A stretch of DNA of 64,000 nt from assembly GCA_903856085.1 (NCBI GenBank), contig CAIOAT010000003.1, forward strand, positions 64,318 to 128,317. The letters run 5' to 3'. The DNA is from Candidatus Omnitrophota bacterium. GTDB taxonomy: Bacteria > Omnitrophota > Omnitrophia > Omnitrophales > Aquincolibacteriaceae. The notes below the pieces were generated by a model that saw only the letters and a list, made by a program, of their open reading frames with translations, did no database searches and was not told where the DNA came from. This document shows, in pieces, positions 4,511-26,489 of this stretch (the stretch's first letter is position 1; each line of letters begins with the position of its first letter). Position numbers and translations under genes: made by a program.

Positions 4511-6250
4511 ATGGGAAAGACAGTTTTCATTAAAGATACGGCGATCACGGGGAAGGACCGGACACGCGATTTCTATGGGGTGTTTCTCGGGACTTTGAGA
4601 GAAAAAGGGCTGGAGAACGAGGTTCAGCTCGTGCGTGTTGCGGATATTGGCATTTACGGCCAAGGGATGACTGTTCGGGTGTTGCCTGAAAATTTTCTTT
4701 ATACGAACGTTCAGGAGAATGATATCCCGGCGATCGTTCAGGACAGCGTTGTGGGAGGTAGGCCTGTCGAGGGGAAGGCGAGCGCGCAGCCCTCCAAGCA
4801 GCTTCGGATCGTGCTTCGTAATTGCGGCGTGATCGATCCAGAAAGCATTGAGGACTATATCGCGCGGGACGGATATCAGGCCCTCGCGAAGGTCCTCACT
4901 GAATACACGCCTGAAAAGGTGGCTCAGGAAATTAAAAATTCGGGACTCAGGGGGCGTGGCGGTGCGGGGTTCCCGACGGGATTGAAATGGGACATTACGC
5001 GCAAGGCCCAGGGCGACCAGAAATATATTATCTGTAACGGTGACGAAGGGGACCCAGGTGCGTACATGGACCGCAGCGTGCTGGAGGGCGATCCCCATTC
5101 CGTGATTGAGGGCATGACCATCGGAGCGTACGCGATTGGTGCTTCCAAGGGATATTTCTATATTCGGGCGGAGTATCCTCTTGCCATCGAGAGGATCGAA
5201 AAAGCCATGCGTCAGTGCCATGAGCGCGGGATTCTTGGCAATGGTATCTTGGGTTCTTCCTTTAATTTTGATCTCGAGATCCGTTTGGGTGCCGGGGCTT
5301 TCGTGTGCGGCGAGGAAACAGCGCTCATTGCTTCTATCGAAGGCAAACGGGGTTATCCGAGTCCGCGGCCTCCCTTTCCGTCTATTAAAGGACTTTGGGG
5401 AAGGCCGACCTGTATCAATAACGTTGAGACTCTAGCGAATATTCCGGTCATTGTGATGAAAGGCGGGGCCTGGTTCGCGGGTATTGGGACCGAGACCTCG
5501 AAGGGGACCAAGGTGTTTGCCGTCACCGGGAAGGTGAAGAATTCCGGTCTTGTGGAAGTTCCGATGGGGACTGCGGTCGAAGATGTTGTTTATGGAATTT
5601 GTGGCGGGGCGATGGCCGGGAAGAATGTCAAGGCGATTCAAACCGGAGGTCCTTCTGGGGGCGTGATCCCGAAAGAATTTTTCCAGACTAAAGTGGATTA
5701 CGAAAGTTTGCAAAAAATGGGTTCCATTATGGGCTCCGGCGGCATGATCGTTATGGACGAGGACGATTGCATGGTGGATATCGCTAAATTCTATCTTGGA
5801 TTTTGTGTGGATGAATCTTGCGGAAAGTGCGCTCCATGCCGTATCGGGGGAACGCAGATGTTGAAACTTCTTGTGAAGGTTACCGACGGAGAGGGGACGC
5901 AAAAGGATCTGGACCAGCTCGAGCAAATCTCCTTTGCCATGCAAAAAGCTTCTCTTTGCGGTCTTGGACAAACGGCCCCGAATCCCGTGCTTTCGACCTT
6001 GCATTATTATCGTGCCGAATATGATGCTCATGTGGACAAAAAGAAATGCCCGGCCTGTAAATGCGCCAAGTTGGTTCGGTTTATGATTATGAGCGAAAAA
6101 TGCGTGAAATGCGGCATGTGTTTTAAGGCCTGCCCTGTGGGCGCCATTTCCGGAAATCGCGAAAGCGGTTATTTGATCGATCAGACAAAATGTATTCGCT
6201 GTGGTCAATGCTTTGAGGTTTGTAAACCCCGCGCGATCAGCCGGGGCTAA
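4511..6250 (+). CDS. NuoF-like NAD(P)H-binding flavoprotein subunit of hydrogenase (HndC/HydB-like) with C-terminal 2x[4Fe-4S] ferredoxin domain
   Basis: 579 aa; GRGGAGFPTG nucleotide site, FMN region, ESCGKCAPCR 4Fe-4S, C-terminal CVKCGMCFKACP and CIRCGQCFEVC; N-terminal ~100 aa Cys-less. Confidence 0.85.
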   Translation: MGKTVFIKDTAITGKDRTRDFYGVFLGTLREKGLENEVQLVRVADIGIYGQGMTVRVLPENFLYTNVQENDIPAIVQDSVVGGRPVEGKASAQPSKQLRIVLRNCGVIDPESIEDYIARDGYQALAKVLTEYTPEKVAQEIKNSGLRGRGGAGFPTGLKWDITRKAQGDQKYIICNGDEGDPGAYMDRSVLEGDPHSVIEGMTIGAYAIGASKGYFYIRAEYPLAIERIEKAMRQCHERGILGNGILGSSFNFDLEIRLGAGAFVCGEETALIASIEGKRGYPSPRPPFPSIKGLWGRPTCINNVETLANIPVIVMKGGAWFAGIGTETSKGTKVFAVTGKVKNSGLVEVPMGTAVEDVVYGICGGAMAGKNVKAIQTGGPSGGVIPKEFFQTKVDYESLQKMGSIMGSGGMIVMDEDDCMVDIAKFYLGFCVDESCGKCAPCRIGGTQMLKLLVKVTDGEGTQKDLDQLEQISFAMQKASLCGLGQTAPNPVLSTLHYYRAEYDAHVDKKKCPACKCAKLVRFMIMSEKCVKCGMCFKACPVGAISGNRESGYLIDQTKCIRCGQCFEVCKPRAISRG

Positions 6251-21972: not shown

Positions 21973-22530
21973 ATGAAAGATATCCAAGTCACTACCGAAT
22001 TTACGCCGAATCCGAACTCGCTTAAGTTCAATGTCAACGTTCCCATCTGTACGCATGGGACGGTGCAATTCGCCTCCAAAGCTGAGGCGGGGAAGTCTCC
22101 GCTGGCCGCCAAGCTTTTTGAGATCGAACACGTCAAAGAGGTGATGATCGGCTCCGATATCGTGACCGTGACGCGTGATGAGAAAGTACAGTCCTGGAGC
22201 GTTTTGATCCCGCGCGTGACTGAAACGATACGGGAGTTTCTCGTTTGCGGGAAAACAAGTCCGAAAGCTTGCGAGAAATGTGCGGATGCTACGAATCCGG
22301 GTTCTGCGATCGAAAAAAGGATCATCGAGATCATGGATGAGCAGATCCGTCCAGCTCTCGCTCGGGACGGTGGCGATGCGGTTTTCTGCGGTTTCGAGAA
22401 CGGTGTTGTGAAGCTGCATCTCAAAGGTGCTTGTTCCGGATGTCCGAGTGCCACCATGACGCTCAAGATGGGCATCGAAGCCTACCTCAAAGAGTACATC
22501 CCCGAAGTGAAGGAAGTAGTGCGCGTCTAA
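21973..22530 (+). CDS. NFU1-type Fe-S cluster scaffold (Nfu N-domain + NifU C-domain)
   Basis: 185 aa; N-terminal TPNPNSLKF pattern, C-terminal NifU CxxC (GACSGCPS); Cys-rich linker CGKTSPKACEKC. Confidence 0.7.
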   Translation: MKDIQVTTEFTPNPNSLKFNVNVPICTHGTVQFASKAEAGKSPLAAKLFEIEHVKEVMIGSDIVTVTRDEKVQSWSVLIPRVTETIREFLVCGKTSPKACEKCADATNPGSAIEKRIIEIMDEQIRPALARDGGDAVFCGFENGVVKLHLKGACSGCPSATMTLKMGIEAYLKEYIPEVKEVVRV

Positions 22531-22653
22531 TAAAAACCGTACCACGGGCACGAGCTACGTTCGACGTACCCCTTAGCTCGTCGTGGGAGACTTCACCCTT
22601 TCTTGAAAATGCCGATATCTAGCCAAGCAGTCGTCTATCATGGGAGGGGAGAT

Positions 22654-22830
22654 ATGGCTAAAAAAGTTCTTCGCAAGCTTTCCGCAGGCAAAGTTACCAC
22701 CTTCAAGCTCCGCAATCGTCGGGGTTATGCTGCCATCTGTATGAATAATCTCACGGAAGGGAATACCGAAAATATTGCCCTTGCGCGTATGGCAAAGGCT
22801 GTTAAACGGATGGGATATCTTCTTTCGTAA
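22654..22830 (+). CDS. Hypothetical small basic protein (58 aa)
   Basis: ATG 22654 preceded by GGGAGGGGAG; basic (K/R-rich) sequence MAKKVLRKLSAGKVTTFKLRNRRGY...; no recognised motif. Confidence 0.35.
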   Translation: MAKKVLRKLSAGKVTTFKLRNRRGYAAICMNNLTEGNTENIALARMAKAVKRMGYLLS

Positions 22831-22834
22831 AAAA

Positions 22835-22870
22835 ATACGGAGTACAGCGTTTGTCTGCCGTACTCCGTAT
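22835..22870. terminator. Bidirectional intrinsic terminator between convergent genes (11-bp stem ATACGGAGTAC/GTACTCCGTAT)
   Basis: Perfect 11-bp inverted repeat 22835-22845 / 22860-22870 flanked by A7 upstream and T-rich tract downstream. Confidence 0.6.
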
Positions 22871-22890
22871 TCGATATTTCTTGATCGTTC

Positions 22891-23061
22891 TTAGCGGCCG
22901 CTAGCATCCTTGCGCTTCGAGAAACAATCCTTGCAATAGACCGGACGGTCTTCTCTGGGCTTGAAAGGAACTTCACATTCCTTTTTGCATTCGCCGCAAG
23001 TCGCCTTATGCATCTCACGCGGTGCGCCTCCGAAACCACGGCCTTCTCCTTGAAACCCCAT
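22891..23061 (-). CDS. CxxC-x17-CxxC zinc-ribbon small protein (56 aa), not in ORF track (<60 aa)
   Basis: Minus-strand ATG at 23061..23059 preceded by GGAGGAG; translation MGFQGEGRGFGGAPREMHKATCGECKKECEVPFKPREDRPVYCKDCFSKRKDASGR; exact C-x2-C-x17-C-x2-C spacing; stop TAA 22893..22891. Confidence 0.6.
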   Translation of the reverse strand: MGFQGEGRGFGGAPREMHKATCGECKKECEVPFKPREDRPVYCKDCFSKRKDASGR

Positions 23062-23151
23062 GTTCATCTCCTCCTGTTGGCACTGATGTCAGTGCAGTTG
23101 TGGGAAAAAATTCCCGAAAAAACCATTACGCTTGTGAAACCATACCTGTAA

Positions 23152-23643
23152 CTACCGGGGACCTTTCCGGTGACGGAAAAAAGGTTTATCGCCATGACCA
23201 AAGCCGCGGGATCCTGCGCCTGGTTTTCTGTCAAAGGATCGCTCCGGGCCGGCGCTTCTTTCCCTGGGGCGGTCCTGTGAGAACCCACTTTCGCGAGGTC
23301 GGTCTTGCGAAAATCCGCCTTCGCGAGGCCGGTCCTTTGAAAAACCACTTGACCTGGGACGGTCATGTGAAAATCCGCCTTCCCTTGGGCGATCATGTGA
23401 GAAGCCTTCTCTCCGGGGACTGCGATTGAAGTCTCTTCCGCCGCCGAAGGAAGGACGAAAAGGTTTTGAAAATCGCTTTTCCCTGTCCCGGAACGGTTTT
23501 TCCGGTGATTGACCAATCAAGATATCTATTTTCTTCTCCAAAAAGTTCAGCTGCTGCTGCATCTTTTTGATCAAAGATACAACGTCCGAGTCGGCCGGCG
23601 GGGGAACAGCAATGTCCTCATTTTCTTCCGAATGTTCGCTCAT
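23152..23643 (-). CDS. Arg-rich low-complexity protein with N-terminal coiled coil and 5 tandem 10-aa repeats (GFSxDRPRExG)
   Basis: 163 aa; ATG with AAGGAG RBS 11 nt upstream; acidic N-terminus, QQQLNFLEKKIDIL coiled-coil, then RGG/RDR-type repeats; competing ORFs in two other frames are repeat artefacts (one needs TTG start). Confidence 0.55.
   Translation of the reverse strand: MSEHSEENEDIAVPPPADSDVVSLIKKMQQQLNFLEKKIDILIGQSPEKPFRDREKRFSKPFRPSFGGGRDFNRSPRREGFSHDRPREGGFSHDRPRSSGFSKDRPREGGFSQDRPRESGFSQDRPRERSAGPERSFDRKPGAGSRGFGHGDKPFFRHRKGPR
23257..23406 (-). repeat. Five tandem copies of a 30-nt unit (consensus cggtcNtgtgaRaaNccNcctTcgcgaggN) encoding the GFSxDRPRE repeats
   Basis: Directly visible periodicity: ggtcctgtgagaacccactttcgcgaggt / cggtcttgcgaaaatccgccttcgcgaggc / cggtcctttgaaaaaccacttgacctggga / cggtcatgtgaaaatccgccttcccttgggc / gatcatgtgagaagccttctctcc. 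Confidence 0.7.
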
Positions 23644-23816
23644 GTTACTTTAGCTCCTTTTGCGTCCGGGTTTTTGTTGAAGAGAAGAGTGGCAGGGCGT
23701 TCCCGAGCGTCCGCACTGACTCGCCATTAGATTTTATGTGTGATTCGTGCATTTCCAATCTTCAATGAAAATTTGAGGAGGATTGGGACGCACTGCATGT
23801 CTCTTTTGTCCGATCC

Positions 23817-24419
23817 TTAATCTTCTCCGGCAAGTGCCAAAGCCGAAAGGACCGAAGGGTTGATTCGCGACGCATGCCCTAGGTTTTTTAGGACTCTGTC
23901 TGCCGTTTTCTTTAAAGTAAGCTTAAACACACAGGAAAGTTCTCCCACAAGTCCTTTGGCCGAACGTTCGAGGGCCTGACGTTTTCTCTGGTCTTTTGCT
24001 TCGAACTTATCGTACGCGAAGGTCTGAAGAGCCCGGGCCAGGCCCCAAGCCTGATCTTGCAGGTTCGAGGATGAATCAGCTGCGGAGCGGCTTTTGCCAT
24101 TTCCAACTTTTAGATAGCGCAGGATCTTATTTGCTTCGCTGCGCGGAACAAGACCGTGAAAACCGGAAATTTCAAGATCTTTGGCCGCAATGACGAAGCG
24201 GGATTTCATTCTAGCGGTTATTTTCGGCACTAATGAATAGGATAGACCCTCTTGACCCGAAGGGCTTGGCCGGGTGACCCTCTCTATGCGGCAAAGGCCG
24301 TGGATCGGATGGTAAAGCAGGTCGCCGTTCGCAAGCTTTTCTTTTTTCATAAGCCTCTTTGTGAAGGTTCTGGGTAGATCATTTTTTCGTGAGGTTTCGA
24401 GTACTGCGTCTATACTCAT
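23817..24419 (-). CDS. CarD/CdnL-family transcriptional regulator (RNAP-interacting Tudor-like N-domain)
   Basis: 200 aa; N-terminal GDLLYHPIHGLCRIERV ... KSRFVIAAKDLEISGFHGLVPRSEANKILRYLK matches the CarD_CdnL_TRCF pattern (hP.HG.G.I ... vP.......GLR). Confidence 0.55.
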   Translation of the reverse strand: MSIDAVLETSRKNDLPRTFTKRLMKKEKLANGDLLYHPIHGLCRIERVTRPSPSGQEGLSYSLVPKITARMKSRFVIAAKDLEISGFHGLVPRSEANKILRYLKVGNGKSRSAADSSSNLQDQAWGLARALQTFAYDKFEAKDQRKRQALERSAKGLVGELSCVFKLTLKKTADRVLKNLGHASRINPSVLSALALAGED

Positions 24420-24476
24420 TTTAAGGGTTCGCAGTACCGTACCGTGTACCCTTAAAAATCAAATAACGCAGTACTG
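24398..24476. promoter_or_regulatory. Nested palindromes with three copies of the 8-mer CGCAGTAC (one inverted) spanning the CdnL-like start codon
   Basis: GTACTGCG 24401-24408, CGCAGTAC 24430-24437 and 24467-24474; inner 9-bp inverted repeat TTTAAGGGT/ACCCTTAAA 24420-24428/24448-24456; start codon complement at 24417-24419. Confidence 0.4.
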
Positions 24477-24641
24477 GTATGACTTCAACTAAGACGGGCT
24501 TGTTTCAGTGCTGGTGTCACCTAGGGGATTGCCAAGCTCTATTGTGACGGGAGGCATTATACAACAGTTTTCTTCAAAAGAGTTATTTATTCTATGCCTC
24601 ATGTTTTTACCCCGATTCGATGCCGAGGGCGATGTGTTTCA

Positions 24642-24671
24642 TTGACACCTCTGAACGATCTGCTGTAAAAT
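24642..24671 (+). promoter_or_regulatory. Sigma70-like promoter candidate for trpS (TTGACA-18-TAAAAT)
   Basis: TTGACA 24642-24647, TAAAAT 24666-24671, 37 nt upstream of trpS ATG 24709. Confidence 0.4.
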
Positions 24672-24708
24672 CCTCAAAATTCAAAGGTTACGGAGATTTG
24701 CCCTCATT

Positions 24709-25692
24709 ATGTCAACACGCGTTCTAAGCGGTACACGGCCCACGGGAAAACTGCATCTTGGGAACCTTCTCGGGGCTCTGGAAAACTACAAAAAATTGCA
24801 AGGCCAGGACGCTTTTTTCATGATTGCGGATTTGCATGCCCTGACCACGGAGTACGAAGATAAGACCAAGATTGCCGAGAACGTGACGGAAGTCGTGGTC
24901 GATTATCTTGCAAGCGGTCTTGATCCGGAGCAGTGCACGATGTTTGTGCAAAGTGAAGTTCTGGAGCACGCCAATCTCGCGCTGCTTTTTTCAATGATCA
25001 CGCCGCTGGGGTGGTTGGAGCGGAATCCGACTTACAAGGATCAGCTCGCGGAGTTGAAGGGCAAAGACCTTCACACTCACGGCTTTTTGGGATATCCGGT
25101 GCTTCAGGCCGCGGATATAGCGCTTTATAAGGCTGAGAAGGTTCCGGTCGGCGAGGATCAGCTGCCACATCTGGAATTGACGCGCGAAATCATTCGTCGG
25201 TTTTTTCATCTTTATAAGAAGCAGATTTTTCCGGAGCCGGAGGCTGTCTTGACGCATGTGCCAAAAGTGCCGGGGCTCGATGGACGGAAGATGAGCAAAA
25301 GTTATGGCAACTGTATTTATCTCGCGGATTCCAGGGAGGAAGTAACGAAGAAGGTCAAGGCCATGGTGACGGATCCGGCGAGAAAACTGCGTTCGGACAA
25401 GGGACATCCAGAAGTTTGTCCCGTCTATTTTTATCATAAGCTCTTTAATCAAGATCAGGTGGAAACGGTTGCGCGGGAATGCCGGGATGCGGCGCGTGGC
25501 TGCGTGGATTGTAAAATGGAAATGGCTGCGAAATTGAACGGATTTATGGATCCGATACGGGAAAGACGTGAATCATGGATGAAGAAAAAAACGGAAATAC
25601 GGCAGATCCTCGACCGGGGAGCCAAGAGGGCGCGGGAAGTAGCGAGCCAAACCCTCAAGGAAACCCTGCAGGCGATGGGTCTGGTGTCGTAG
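24709..25692 (+). CDS. trpS: Tryptophan--tRNA ligase
   Basis: 327 aa; class I motifs (TGKLHLGNLLG = HIGH-like; KMSKS present as KMSKSYGN). Confidence 0.9.
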   Translation: MSTRVLSGTRPTGKLHLGNLLGALENYKKLQGQDAFFMIADLHALTTEYEDKTKIAENVTEVVVDYLASGLDPEQCTMFVQSEVLEHANLALLFSMITPLGWLERNPTYKDQLAELKGKDLHTHGFLGYPVLQAADIALYKAEKVPVGEDQLPHLELTREIIRRFFHLYKKQIFPEPEAVLTHVPKVPGLDGRKMSKSYGNCIYLADSREEVTKKVKAMVTDPARKLRSDKGHPEVCPVYFYHKLFNQDQVETVARECRDAARGCVDCKMEMAAKLNGFMDPIRERRESWMKKKTEIRQILDRGAKRAREVASQTLKETLQAMGLVS

Positions 25693-25748
25693 CTTCTCCC
25701 GCGACGCCTCCGTCAGAACTCTCTGGGCTCCCGCTTATCCCGGAAGCC

Positions 25749-26489
25749 GTGAAAGAACACGATCCGCTTCACGTCAAGATCGCGGTCTATGACGGGCCGC
25801 TTGATCTTCTTCTAGACCTCATCCGGAAAAATGAGATGAATGTCTACGACATTCCGGTCGCGGAGATCACGCAGCAGTATTTGGATTATCTGAAAGTGAT
25901 GAAACAGCTGGACCTCGAGGTTGCGGGCGAATTCATCGTGATGGCCGCAACGCTCATCTATATCAAGTCTAAGATGCTGCTGCCCACGGATAAGGATGAG
26001 GAAGAAGGCGACGGCGAGGATCCGCGCGCGGAACTCGTGCGCAAACTACTCGAGTATCAGGCCTTCAAGGAAGCAGCCAAGGAACTCGGGCTGCTTCAGA
26101 CCGAACGCGGCAAGGTGTTCACGCGTCAGATCACGGATTATTATTTGGGAGAGCTGGATCCCGAGGACGTGGGCGTGGATACGTTCAGCGCGAATTTTTT
26201 CGATCTCATCGTTGCGTTCCAGAACGTGCTGGCAAAAAAAGAGCCCAAAAGTCAGCATGAGGTTTTTGAAGAAGTTATCTCGATCGAAGAAAAGATGATC
26301 CAGATCCAGGCTTATCTCGAAGAGAAAAAGAAGGTCTCGTTTAACGATCTTTTTTCGGAGCGCTGGACGAGGAACGAACTCATTGCGACGTTCCTGGCGA
26401 TCCTCGAACTTGTAAGGACACGTTTCGCCTGGGTGCGGCAGGATAAGCAGTTCGGCGAGATCGTCATTGAAAAACGGGAAGAGAATTAG
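25749..26489 (+). CDS. scpA: Segregation and condensation protein A (ScpA)
   Basis: Conserved start region VYDGPLDLLLDLIRKNEMNVYDIPVAEITQQYLDYL; track ORF starts at ATG 25575 inside trpS, so GTG 25749 (first in-frame start after trpS region) is preferred; start remains uncertain. Confidence 0.65.
   Translation: MKEHDPLHVKIAVYDGPLDLLLDLIRKNEMNVYDIPVAEITQQYLDYLKVMKQLDLEVAGEFIVMAATLIYIKSKMLLPTDKDEEEGDGEDPRAELVRKLLEYQAFKEAAKELGLLQTERGKVFTRQITDYYLGELDPEDVGVDTFSANFFDLIVAFQNVLAKKEPKSQHEVFEEVISIEEKMIQIQAYLEEKKKVSFNDLFSERWTRNELIATFLAILELVRTRFAWVRQDKQFGEIVIEKREEN

Follow-up and report, generated by a model that had tools for sequence, protein, structure and literature searches.

The question raised by one locus in a contig of a Candidatus Omnitrophota bacterium is whether a tandem repeat that is open in more than one frame belongs to a real gene, and if so, what kind of protein that gene encodes and with which partner the protein may act. 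The locus lies in a window of 64,000 nucleotides (nt), by which the whole stretch of DNA that was analysed is meant, and consists of an open reading frame (ORF) for 163 amino acids (aa) at 23152-23643 on the minus strand, which encloses five head-to-tail units of 30 nt at 23257-23406 on the same strand. On the basis of its homologues the encoded protein is a member of an unnamed, previously undescribed family of small proteins that occurs mainly in the Omnitrophota. The next gene downstream encodes a CxxC-x17-CxxC zinc-ribbon protein, and this partner returns next to, or inside, many of the relatives. The coordinates of the features are collected in Table 1.

The reading frame, the protein and its family

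The five units are found both by Tandem Repeats Finder (period 30 nt, 4.7 copies, 70% matches, 23260-23400) and in a table of the individual units, which confirms what an earlier, sequence-only reading of this DNA had reported. They encode GFSHDRPREG, GFSHDRPRSS, GFSKDRPREG, GFSQDRPRES and GFSQDRPRER, with a mean pairwise identity of 71% for the DNA and 80% for the protein. The 86 pairwise differences between the units are split 20/4/62 over the first, second and third codon positions of the 163-aa frame, and this pattern is the mark of an old repeat that has been kept in that frame by purifying selection. A homologue search (E<=1e-3) returned 154 proteins of 110-186 aa, every one in the same frame, all of them unnamed or 'hypothetical' and, where the source organism was named, from Candidatus Omnitrophota. 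The bias and the homologues together imply a genuine frame on which selection acts. The ORF starts with an ATG at 23643, and the Shine-Dalgarno sequence AAGGAG is found 10 nt upstream of it; the frame and strand chosen in the sequence-only reading were thus the correct ones.

Other long ORFs do cover the repeat, one of 150 aa at 23064-23516 on the minus strand and one of 135 aa at 23022-23429 on the plus strand, and the +1 frame of the gene is open in all orthologues. The openness of the +1 frame is explained by a disordered region that is almost devoid of codons for L, I, V and M. Since 62 of the 86 differences between units fall in third positions, which are evidently free to vary, a second coding constraint is excluded. 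An overlapping gene at the repeat was therefore ruled out on the grounds of codon-position bias and base composition.

The protein has an isoelectric point (pI) of 10.5 and a net charge of +10, which rises to +17 outside the acidic head, and is there rich in Arg, Ser, Gly, Pro and Phe. AlphaFold2, run on an alignment of 35 sequences, predicts a single confident element, a helix of residues 17-45 with a predicted local distance difference test (pLDDT) above 90, the remainder staying below about 60; its amphipathic part comprises residues 21-46, with V21, I25, M28, L32, L35, I39 and L42 on the a/d heptad positions. Together with the charge of -7 in residues 1-20, these data uphold the architecture proposed earlier, in which an acidic head is followed by a coiled coil and then by a low-complexity tail. 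The description of that tail as 'RGG-like' was wrong: among the 163 residues there is no RGG and one RG, so that clustered RGG/RG repeats are absent, and the repeated unit, DRPRE-GGF, is balanced in charge (two R, one D and one E) and forms a block that is not strongly basic but nearly neutral (+2). The protein lacks cysteine, and by composition as well as by Pfam and NCBIfam no CxxC-x17-CxxC domain is present; matches to both databases were all sub-threshold. Sequence and fold searches of the PDB gave nothing significant for the family. PADLOC and PHROGs returned no matches to the protein, and a phage or defence origin was rejected on that ground.

The family was defined by two alignments (A1 and A2), and the 65 N-terminal positions served as a profile against 1.84 billion representative proteins. 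This profile retrieved 506 clusters at 50% identity with E<=1e-3, and 277 with E<=1e-10. Among the best 150 of the 506 clusters the proteins are 51-194 aa long, the module begins at residue 1 in nearly all and within the first ~60 residues in the rest, and the helix was seen in no other architecture; the family therefore appears to consist of small proteins only. The homologues of the N-terminal region that the sequence-only reading had proposed to look for thus exist, in at least 506 clusters, and this region is the most conserved part of the family. In a scan that covered each GTDB species with one genome, 80 loci came up, most of them in metagenome-assembled genomes of Omnitrophota; a few of the 80 carry submitter labels such as Planctomycetia, Acidobacteriota or delta-proteobacteria. 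A second copy of the gene is absent from the window, and a literature search on the family found nothing.

The invariant core of the alignment comprises Q29, Q30, L32, L35, K38, L42, F58 and F148. Three motifs, LIKKMQQQLxFLEKKID, FSKPFR and GFG…KPFFxxRK, characterise the family, and the sequence between them is highly variable. In the window protein the helix signature [LIV][IL]K[KR][MIV]QQQLxxLEKKID is represented by residues 21-40 (VVSLIKKMQQQLNFLEKKID), the second motif by RFSKPFRPSF at residues 57-66, and the tail by RGFGHGDKPFFRHRKGPR at residues 146-163.

The zinc-ribbon partner

The downstream gene is a clear member of TIGR04272 (66.6 bits against a cutoff of 36, E 1.2e-18, NCBIfam) and of PF23477 (68 bits against a cutoff of 27, E 5.5e-19, Pfam; zf_Tbcl_2, 'probable treble clef zinc finger'), the closest named family to the module described here. 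The encoded protein is basic (pI 8.95) and carries the motif CGEC-x17-CKDC, with the spacing that defines the family. Translation probably begins at the ATG of 23061, which gives a protein of 56 aa that opens with MGFQGEG…, because GGAGGAG lies 6 nt before this codon and the orthologues start with MGFQG. A sequence search of the PDB with the ribbon protein showed no relative of solved structure. Two homologues from Methanosarcina mazei were shown by inductively coupled plasma mass spectrometry to bind zinc, and small ribbon proteins of that organism were detected with high confidence in proteomic analyses (PMC12704099).

In the five loci L001-L005 the ribbon ORF is found downstream of the family gene although the flanking genes differ, and the order of family gene and ribbon gene recurs in four metagenomic contexts that are unrelated, one of which has a public gene call in a wrong frame. 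This is the case of L003, where the ribbon ORF at 5588-5761 on the plus strand (57 aa, MGFQGGGYGG…) is uncalled and its place is taken by an overlapping ORF of 75 aa in another frame (5610-5837); annotation may miss small ribbon genes in assemblies of this kind.

The association was counted over 84 distinct family genes, for each of which the ribbon was sought in the protein as well as in the flank. In 33 loci the protein has no ribbon and a ribbon gene follows at a distance of 24-411 nt (median 73 nt); in 16 the ribbon is embedded between helix and tail; two combine an embedded ribbon with a further ribbon gene downstream; and in the remaining 33 no ribbon lies within the flank. Overall a downstream ribbon gene is thus present in 35/84 loci, and a ribbon in the same polypeptide in 18/84. 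In L089 (4001-4778) and L031 a ribbon-containing member is followed by a stand-alone ribbon gene of 40-96 aa, so the downstream position is kept even where the upstream protein has a ribbon of its own. Conservation of the neighbourhood and fusion of the genes, taken together, speak strongly for joint action of the two genes of the window. The tie to the zinc-ribbon gene that had been proposed earlier is therefore real, and stronger than was proposed, since the ribbon gene follows whatever the other neighbours are.

The fused form was represented by 830 matches, the best 120 of which are all about 165 aa long, contain PF23477 and are named 'CxxC-x17-CxxC domain-containing protein' at NCBI. These Omnitrophota members share the N-terminal helix, FSKPFR and the basic tail with the window protein; the latter, which has neither cysteine nor ribbon, is hence not a member of the CxxC-x17-CxxC family. 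The module of helix and disordered tail falls outside the definition of that family, and is covered by no Pfam or NCBIfam model. An AlphaFold2 model of the fused form has a helix at residues 16-45 and a separate ribbon, a β-hairpin plus helix, at residues 83-117 (pLDDT ~80), with disorder between them. Its predicted template modelling score of 0.25 suggests that helix and ribbon are independent modules on a flexible chain. A Foldseek search of the PDB with this model returned generic small zinc fingers only, none at E<=0.001. An unexpected difference between the two forms lies in the charge ahead of the helix, which among the proteins P0001-P0381 has a mean of -4.0 where the ribbon is absent (n=210) and of +3.0 where it is fused (n=108).

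Ribbons of this kind also occur elsewhere. A tblastn search of the ribbon against plasmids found only Firmicute proteins with a double ribbon. A Firmicute protein of 92 aa encoded on the Pusillibacter faecalis plasmid pMM59_01 (L086, 2845-3123) directly downstream of a gene for a sigma-70-family sigma factor combines a different zinc ribbon (CKEC…FVFTAGEQEFY…CKAC) with the CxxC-x17-CxxC ribbon.

Candidate functions of the two-gene module

With a probability of roughly one half, we propose that the two genes encode a nucleic-acid-binding module built from an oligomeric helix, disordered basic tails and a zinc ribbon, with RNA a more likely target than DNA. The helix, with its three to four heptads, would most likely form a dimer or higher oligomer, in which several basic tails and zinc ribbons, presented side by side, would contact an acidic polymer, presumably nucleic acid and RNA rather than DNA. 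Where many relatives hold the ribbon inside the polypeptide, the lineage of the window supplies it separately from the downstream gene. The acidic head of such split forms may dock the basic ribbon protein or shield the protein's own basic tail, and the GFSxDRPRxx units could serve as a spacer that is balanced in charge, tunable in both length and valency, and provided with several Arg and Phe contact points. The manner of working may be likened to that of ribosomal-protein extensions or of the accessory tails of helicases. What points toward nucleic acid, and toward RNA, is the charge of +17 outside the head, the zinc binding and confident proteomic detection of ribbon homologues and the recurrence of RNA-related neighbours; RNA is preferred over DNA because of this neighbour pattern and because the tail resembles ribosomal-protein and helicase extensions.

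As to the neighbours, a DEAD-box helicase gene lies immediately upstream of the family gene, unfused, in L028, L035, L045 and L058. The order in L045 is helicase, family gene, ribbon, and in L058 (1385-3450) the zinc ribbon, the helicase and the family gene follow each other on one strand. RlmI-like methyltransferases are among the neighbours in L003 and L026, and RlmN in L089. In L087 (2777-4969) a fused member of 170 aa is located between trmD and rplS, after an unannotated, apparently membrane-bound protein of 133 aa; this site matches a position in the classical rpsP-rimM-trmD-rplS ribosomal operon. Further RNA-linked neighbours are three ABC proteins with an ABC_tran_Xtn domain (probably of the ABC-F type) and one Dus.

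The tails of DEAD-box helicases of the DeaD/CsdA and RhlE type, to which the earlier reading had compared the protein, share with it a low-complexity, Arg- and Gly-rich disorder, a likeness that we regard as an analogy; one member (P0034) is labelled 'ATP-dependent RNA helicase DeaD' by the JGI. The differences are considerable: the 163-aa protein has neither a helicase core nor RGG, the 150 best family members are all of 194 aa or less, and the Omnitrophota helicases that adjoin family genes have short basic tails and no ribbon. That such tails are often followed by the ribbon, as the earlier reading had it, could not be confirmed: no fusion of a DEAD-box helicase to the ribbon was seen among the best 120 of 4459 ribbon-profile matches, all of which are stand-alone proteins of 51-76 aa, nor did the tblastn search of plasmids show one. 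A literature search on the domain accessions and on DEAD-box combined with treble clef found nothing. On the ribosomal side, the eL42 loop GFGGQTKPIFRKKAK is a short motif that resembles the family tail GFG…KKPFFxxRK, and eL42 chains are the top profile matches in the PDB, at a non-significant E of 0.18-1.4. Homology of the tail to eL42/L44e was rejected, as hhalign against a yeast eL42 sequence reached a probability of 4.9% and the topology differs.

Several observations weigh against the proposal of an RNA-binding module. No part of the 163-aa protein has an experimental or homology-based functional annotation. The neighbours span a wide range (72 of them on the same strand hold 146 Pfam families), and the RNA flavour among them is no more than a raw recurrence. 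Contexts of transcription or DNA do exist, with Mfd as the gene next to a fused homologue in L088 and possibly a CarD-like neighbour in the window, and some annotators name the ribbon 'DNA-directed RNA polymerase'. No ribbon gene is found near 33/84 family genes, and the repeat block, which is nearly neutral and without RGG, should by itself be a weak binder of nucleic acid.

These contexts lead to the first alternative, a DNA-binding or transcription-associated protein, either an H-NS-like nucleoid protein or an accessory factor of RNA polymerase, which we consider rather unlikely. The layout of coiled coil, linker and zinc finger in the AlphaFold2 models would suit such a role. H-NS consists of an N-terminal coiled-coil oligomerisation domain, a flexible linker and a C-terminal nucleic-acid-binding domain, and the fused relatives likewise combine a coiled coil, a disordered basic linker and a small binding domain. 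This is an analogy of layout only: sequence and fold show no similarity, and the binding domain is here a zinc ribbon. No homology to any known DNA-binding family was detected in the PDB sequence and fold searches, and the RNA- or translation-related neighbours outnumber the DNA-related ones. A role resembling that of TFIIB has been proposed for the M. mazei ribbon proteins (PMC12704099).

The same alternative could draw on the gene upstream in the window, which encodes a protein of 200 aa and had been called CdnL-like. This identification could not be established. The match to CarD_TRCF_RID, an RNA polymerase interaction domain, reaches 15.8 bits against a Pfam cutoff of 23 (E 0.015) and is found in 4/12 orthologues; a profile search of the PDB gave no match; and hhalign against an M. 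tuberculosis CarD sequence, although colinear (30-105 to 5-77), assigns a probability of 0.5%. The protein may be a very divergent CarD-like factor or represent a new family. In the closest clade it is well conserved (80% mean column identity, invariant C-terminus …SVLSALALAGED), and it is kept only in the 14 closest loci, which places it outside the conserved module.

A second alternative holds that the protein is a scaffold or chaperone for other proteins without any role for nucleic acid, in which helix and motifs would recruit the ribbon protein or further partners and the repeats would act as an entropic spacer. Invariant residues on the surface of the helix (Q29, Q30 and K38) as well as the conserved FSKPFR and KPFF would fit specific docking of proteins, the N-terminal charge shifts with fusion of the ribbon, and the repeat block is charge-neutral. 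The strongly basic remainder of the protein argues against this, as does the basic nature of the ribbon protein, which makes an acidic target such as nucleic acid the simplest ligand; moreover, the ribbon is the only partner conserved in the neighbourhood. We therefore judge it a doubtful explanation, with the odds plainly against it.

A bolder form of the nucleic-acid reading is a phylum-specific, abundant organiser associated with RNA or ribosomes, or with the nucleoid, in which the N-terminal charge would be a built-in switch, the acidic head of split forms capturing the ribbon protein or masking the tail, and the mixed-charge Arg/Phe repeats would tune a multivalent, condensate-like assembly. 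Mixed-charge (RD/RE) and FG-type low-complexity domains are known from eukaryotes, and the likeness to them is one of composition only, as DRPRE-GGFS alternates Arg with Asp or Glu and contains Gly-Phe. We hold such an organiser to be improbable, and the formation of condensates, which the sequence-only reading had also raised, is pure speculation.

The sequence-only reading had held that the number of repeats is likely to vary between strains. A third alternative takes the array for a contingency locus whose length or phase changes fast between strains by slippage, the variation itself being the function. Close relatives (>=57% identity) do carry about one to seven copies of the 10-aa unit (one in P0079, two in P0051, three in P0025, five in the window, six in P0002 and P0003, about seven in P0082), with lengths that cluster near 139, 149, 159 and 169 aa and thus step by about 10 aa. 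The variation seen is one between relatives at the level of species, for the sole relative of 99% identity (P0001) has five units like the window. Every change in length preserves the frame and the conserved C-terminal tail. The units, moreover, are 71% identical in DNA and differ mostly in synonymous positions, which marks the array as old and ill suited to slippage; we regard a contingency locus as very improbable.

The origin of the array can be traced to some extent. More distant members have no 10-aa array and instead a single PREGxF element, or else repeats of ~30 aa that are independent of it (e.g. P0097 and P0253), and the consensus of the fused form (…PREGxFxxxRxFDK…RKKPxFRRRK) likewise has a single PREGxF element where the window protein has its array. 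By this comparison the unit of the window is a lineage-specific amplification of a PREGGF/PREGxF element that is single-copy in other members, and the disordered middle, to judge from the unrelated repeats, is a region that has been expanded more than once in the family.

Finally, there is a next to negligible chance that the ORF is an artefact and that the locus is really read in another frame or on the other strand, or yields no product: the long ORFs in other frames that remain open in the orthologues are accounted for by composition, and the 20/4/62 bias, the hundreds of homologues in the 163-aa frame and the invariant helix outside the repeat stand against it.

Surroundings and wider meaning

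Table 1. Features of the repeat gene, its ribbon partner and their flanks (positions in the window).
Feature	Position	Strand	Evidence
Coding sequence, 163 aa: acidic N-tail, coiled-coil helix, FSKPFR motif, five 10-aa repeats, basic KPFF tail	23152..23643	-	ORF list and homologues
Acidic N-terminal tail, residues 1-20 (MSEHSEENEDIAVPPPADSD), net charge -7	23584..23643	-	Charge computed
Predicted amphipathic coiled-coil helix, residues 17-45 (…DVVSLIKKMQQQLNFLEKKIDILIGQ), family signature	23509..23595	-	AlphaFold2 pLDDT >90
Conserved linear motif FSKPFRPSF, residues 58-66	23446..23472	-	F58 invariant; K60, P61, R63 in >=90% of sequences
Five tandem 30-nt units, GFSxDRPRxx, residues 80-129	23257..23406	-	Tandem Repeats Finder and unit table
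Basic C-terminal tail, residues 130-163 (…ERSFDRKPGAGSRGFGHGDKPFFRHRKGPR), net charge +7	23155..23256	-	F137, F148, K153, P154, F155 family-conserved
Shine-Dalgarno sequence AAGGAG	23654..23659	-	Sequence inspection
Weak sigma-70-like promoter match, TTGGAA-16-TAAAAT, tentative	23731..23758	-	9/12 positions, ~90 nt upstream of the start codon
CxxC-x17-CxxC zinc-ribbon gene, 58 aa from the ATG at 23067	22891..23067	-	TIGR04272 and PF23477 matches
Intrinsic terminator just past the ribbon gene, stem of 15 bp and U7	22827..22871	-	Fold energy -26 kcal/mol, z -7.0
Gene for upstream 200-aa protein	23817..24419	-	Only a sub-threshold CarD/TRCF-RID match

The simplest reading of the flanking signals is that the family gene and the ribbon gene form a bicistronic unit, because a strong terminator follows the ribbon gene only. 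None of 200 shuffled sequences gave a hairpin as good, and the 90-nt spacer between the two genes contains no significant structure (z -1.3). Promoter-like sites are no more frequent than in shuffled sequence, that is, they occur at the level of chance. A search of Rfam over 22000-25000 found no structured RNA at E<=1.

A conserved basic protein of 58 aa (MAKKVLRKLSAGKVTTFKLRNRRGYAAICMNNLTEGNTENIALARMAKAVKRMGYLLS), which matches no family, is encoded at 22654-22830 on the plus strand of the window and at 5773-5949 on the minus strand of L001, and its gene converges on the ribbon gene, whose hairpin it uses as a bidirectional terminator. The 75-aa ORF listed for it, from a TTG at 22603, is probably too long. 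On the other side of the module, the ORF for tryptophanyl-tRNA synthetase (24709-25692) and the one that starts at 25575, both within 24709-26489 on the plus strand, overlap by 118 nt as listed; the second is by synteny with L001 probably ScpA, and its real start probably lies further downstream. The order tryptophanyl-tRNA synthetase, ScpA, ScpB and the order NifU, aldolase around the module are shared by the window, L001 and L002. Given the diversity of the neighbours over all loci, a conserved operon partner other than the ribbon was rejected.

The Omnitrophota are widespread and almost wholly uncultured, and most of their small proteins are unannotated. What had been one 'hypothetical protein with a repeat' has here become a defined family with a signature helix, two linear motifs, a disordered region of variable length and a partner ribbon, and the CxxC-x17-CxxC domain gains its first consistent partner. 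Errors of annotation come to light at the same time: at least one public contig has a wrong call for the ribbon ORF, and members without a ribbon have been given no name.

The module is a variant of a familiar type, that of small, oligomeric, basic and disordered proteins with a zinc finger; the link by fusion and neighbourhood and the switch in N-terminal charge are its most notable parts. Its practical importance would be modest unless it proves to be a major component of the ribosome or the nucleoid. Oligomerisation, docking of the acidic head and the binding of RNA as against DNA are now hypotheses that can be tested, and if the organiser proposed above were to exist, the family would represent a module of a new type for the organisation of nucleic acid in bacteria, one whose disordered region can be tuned.

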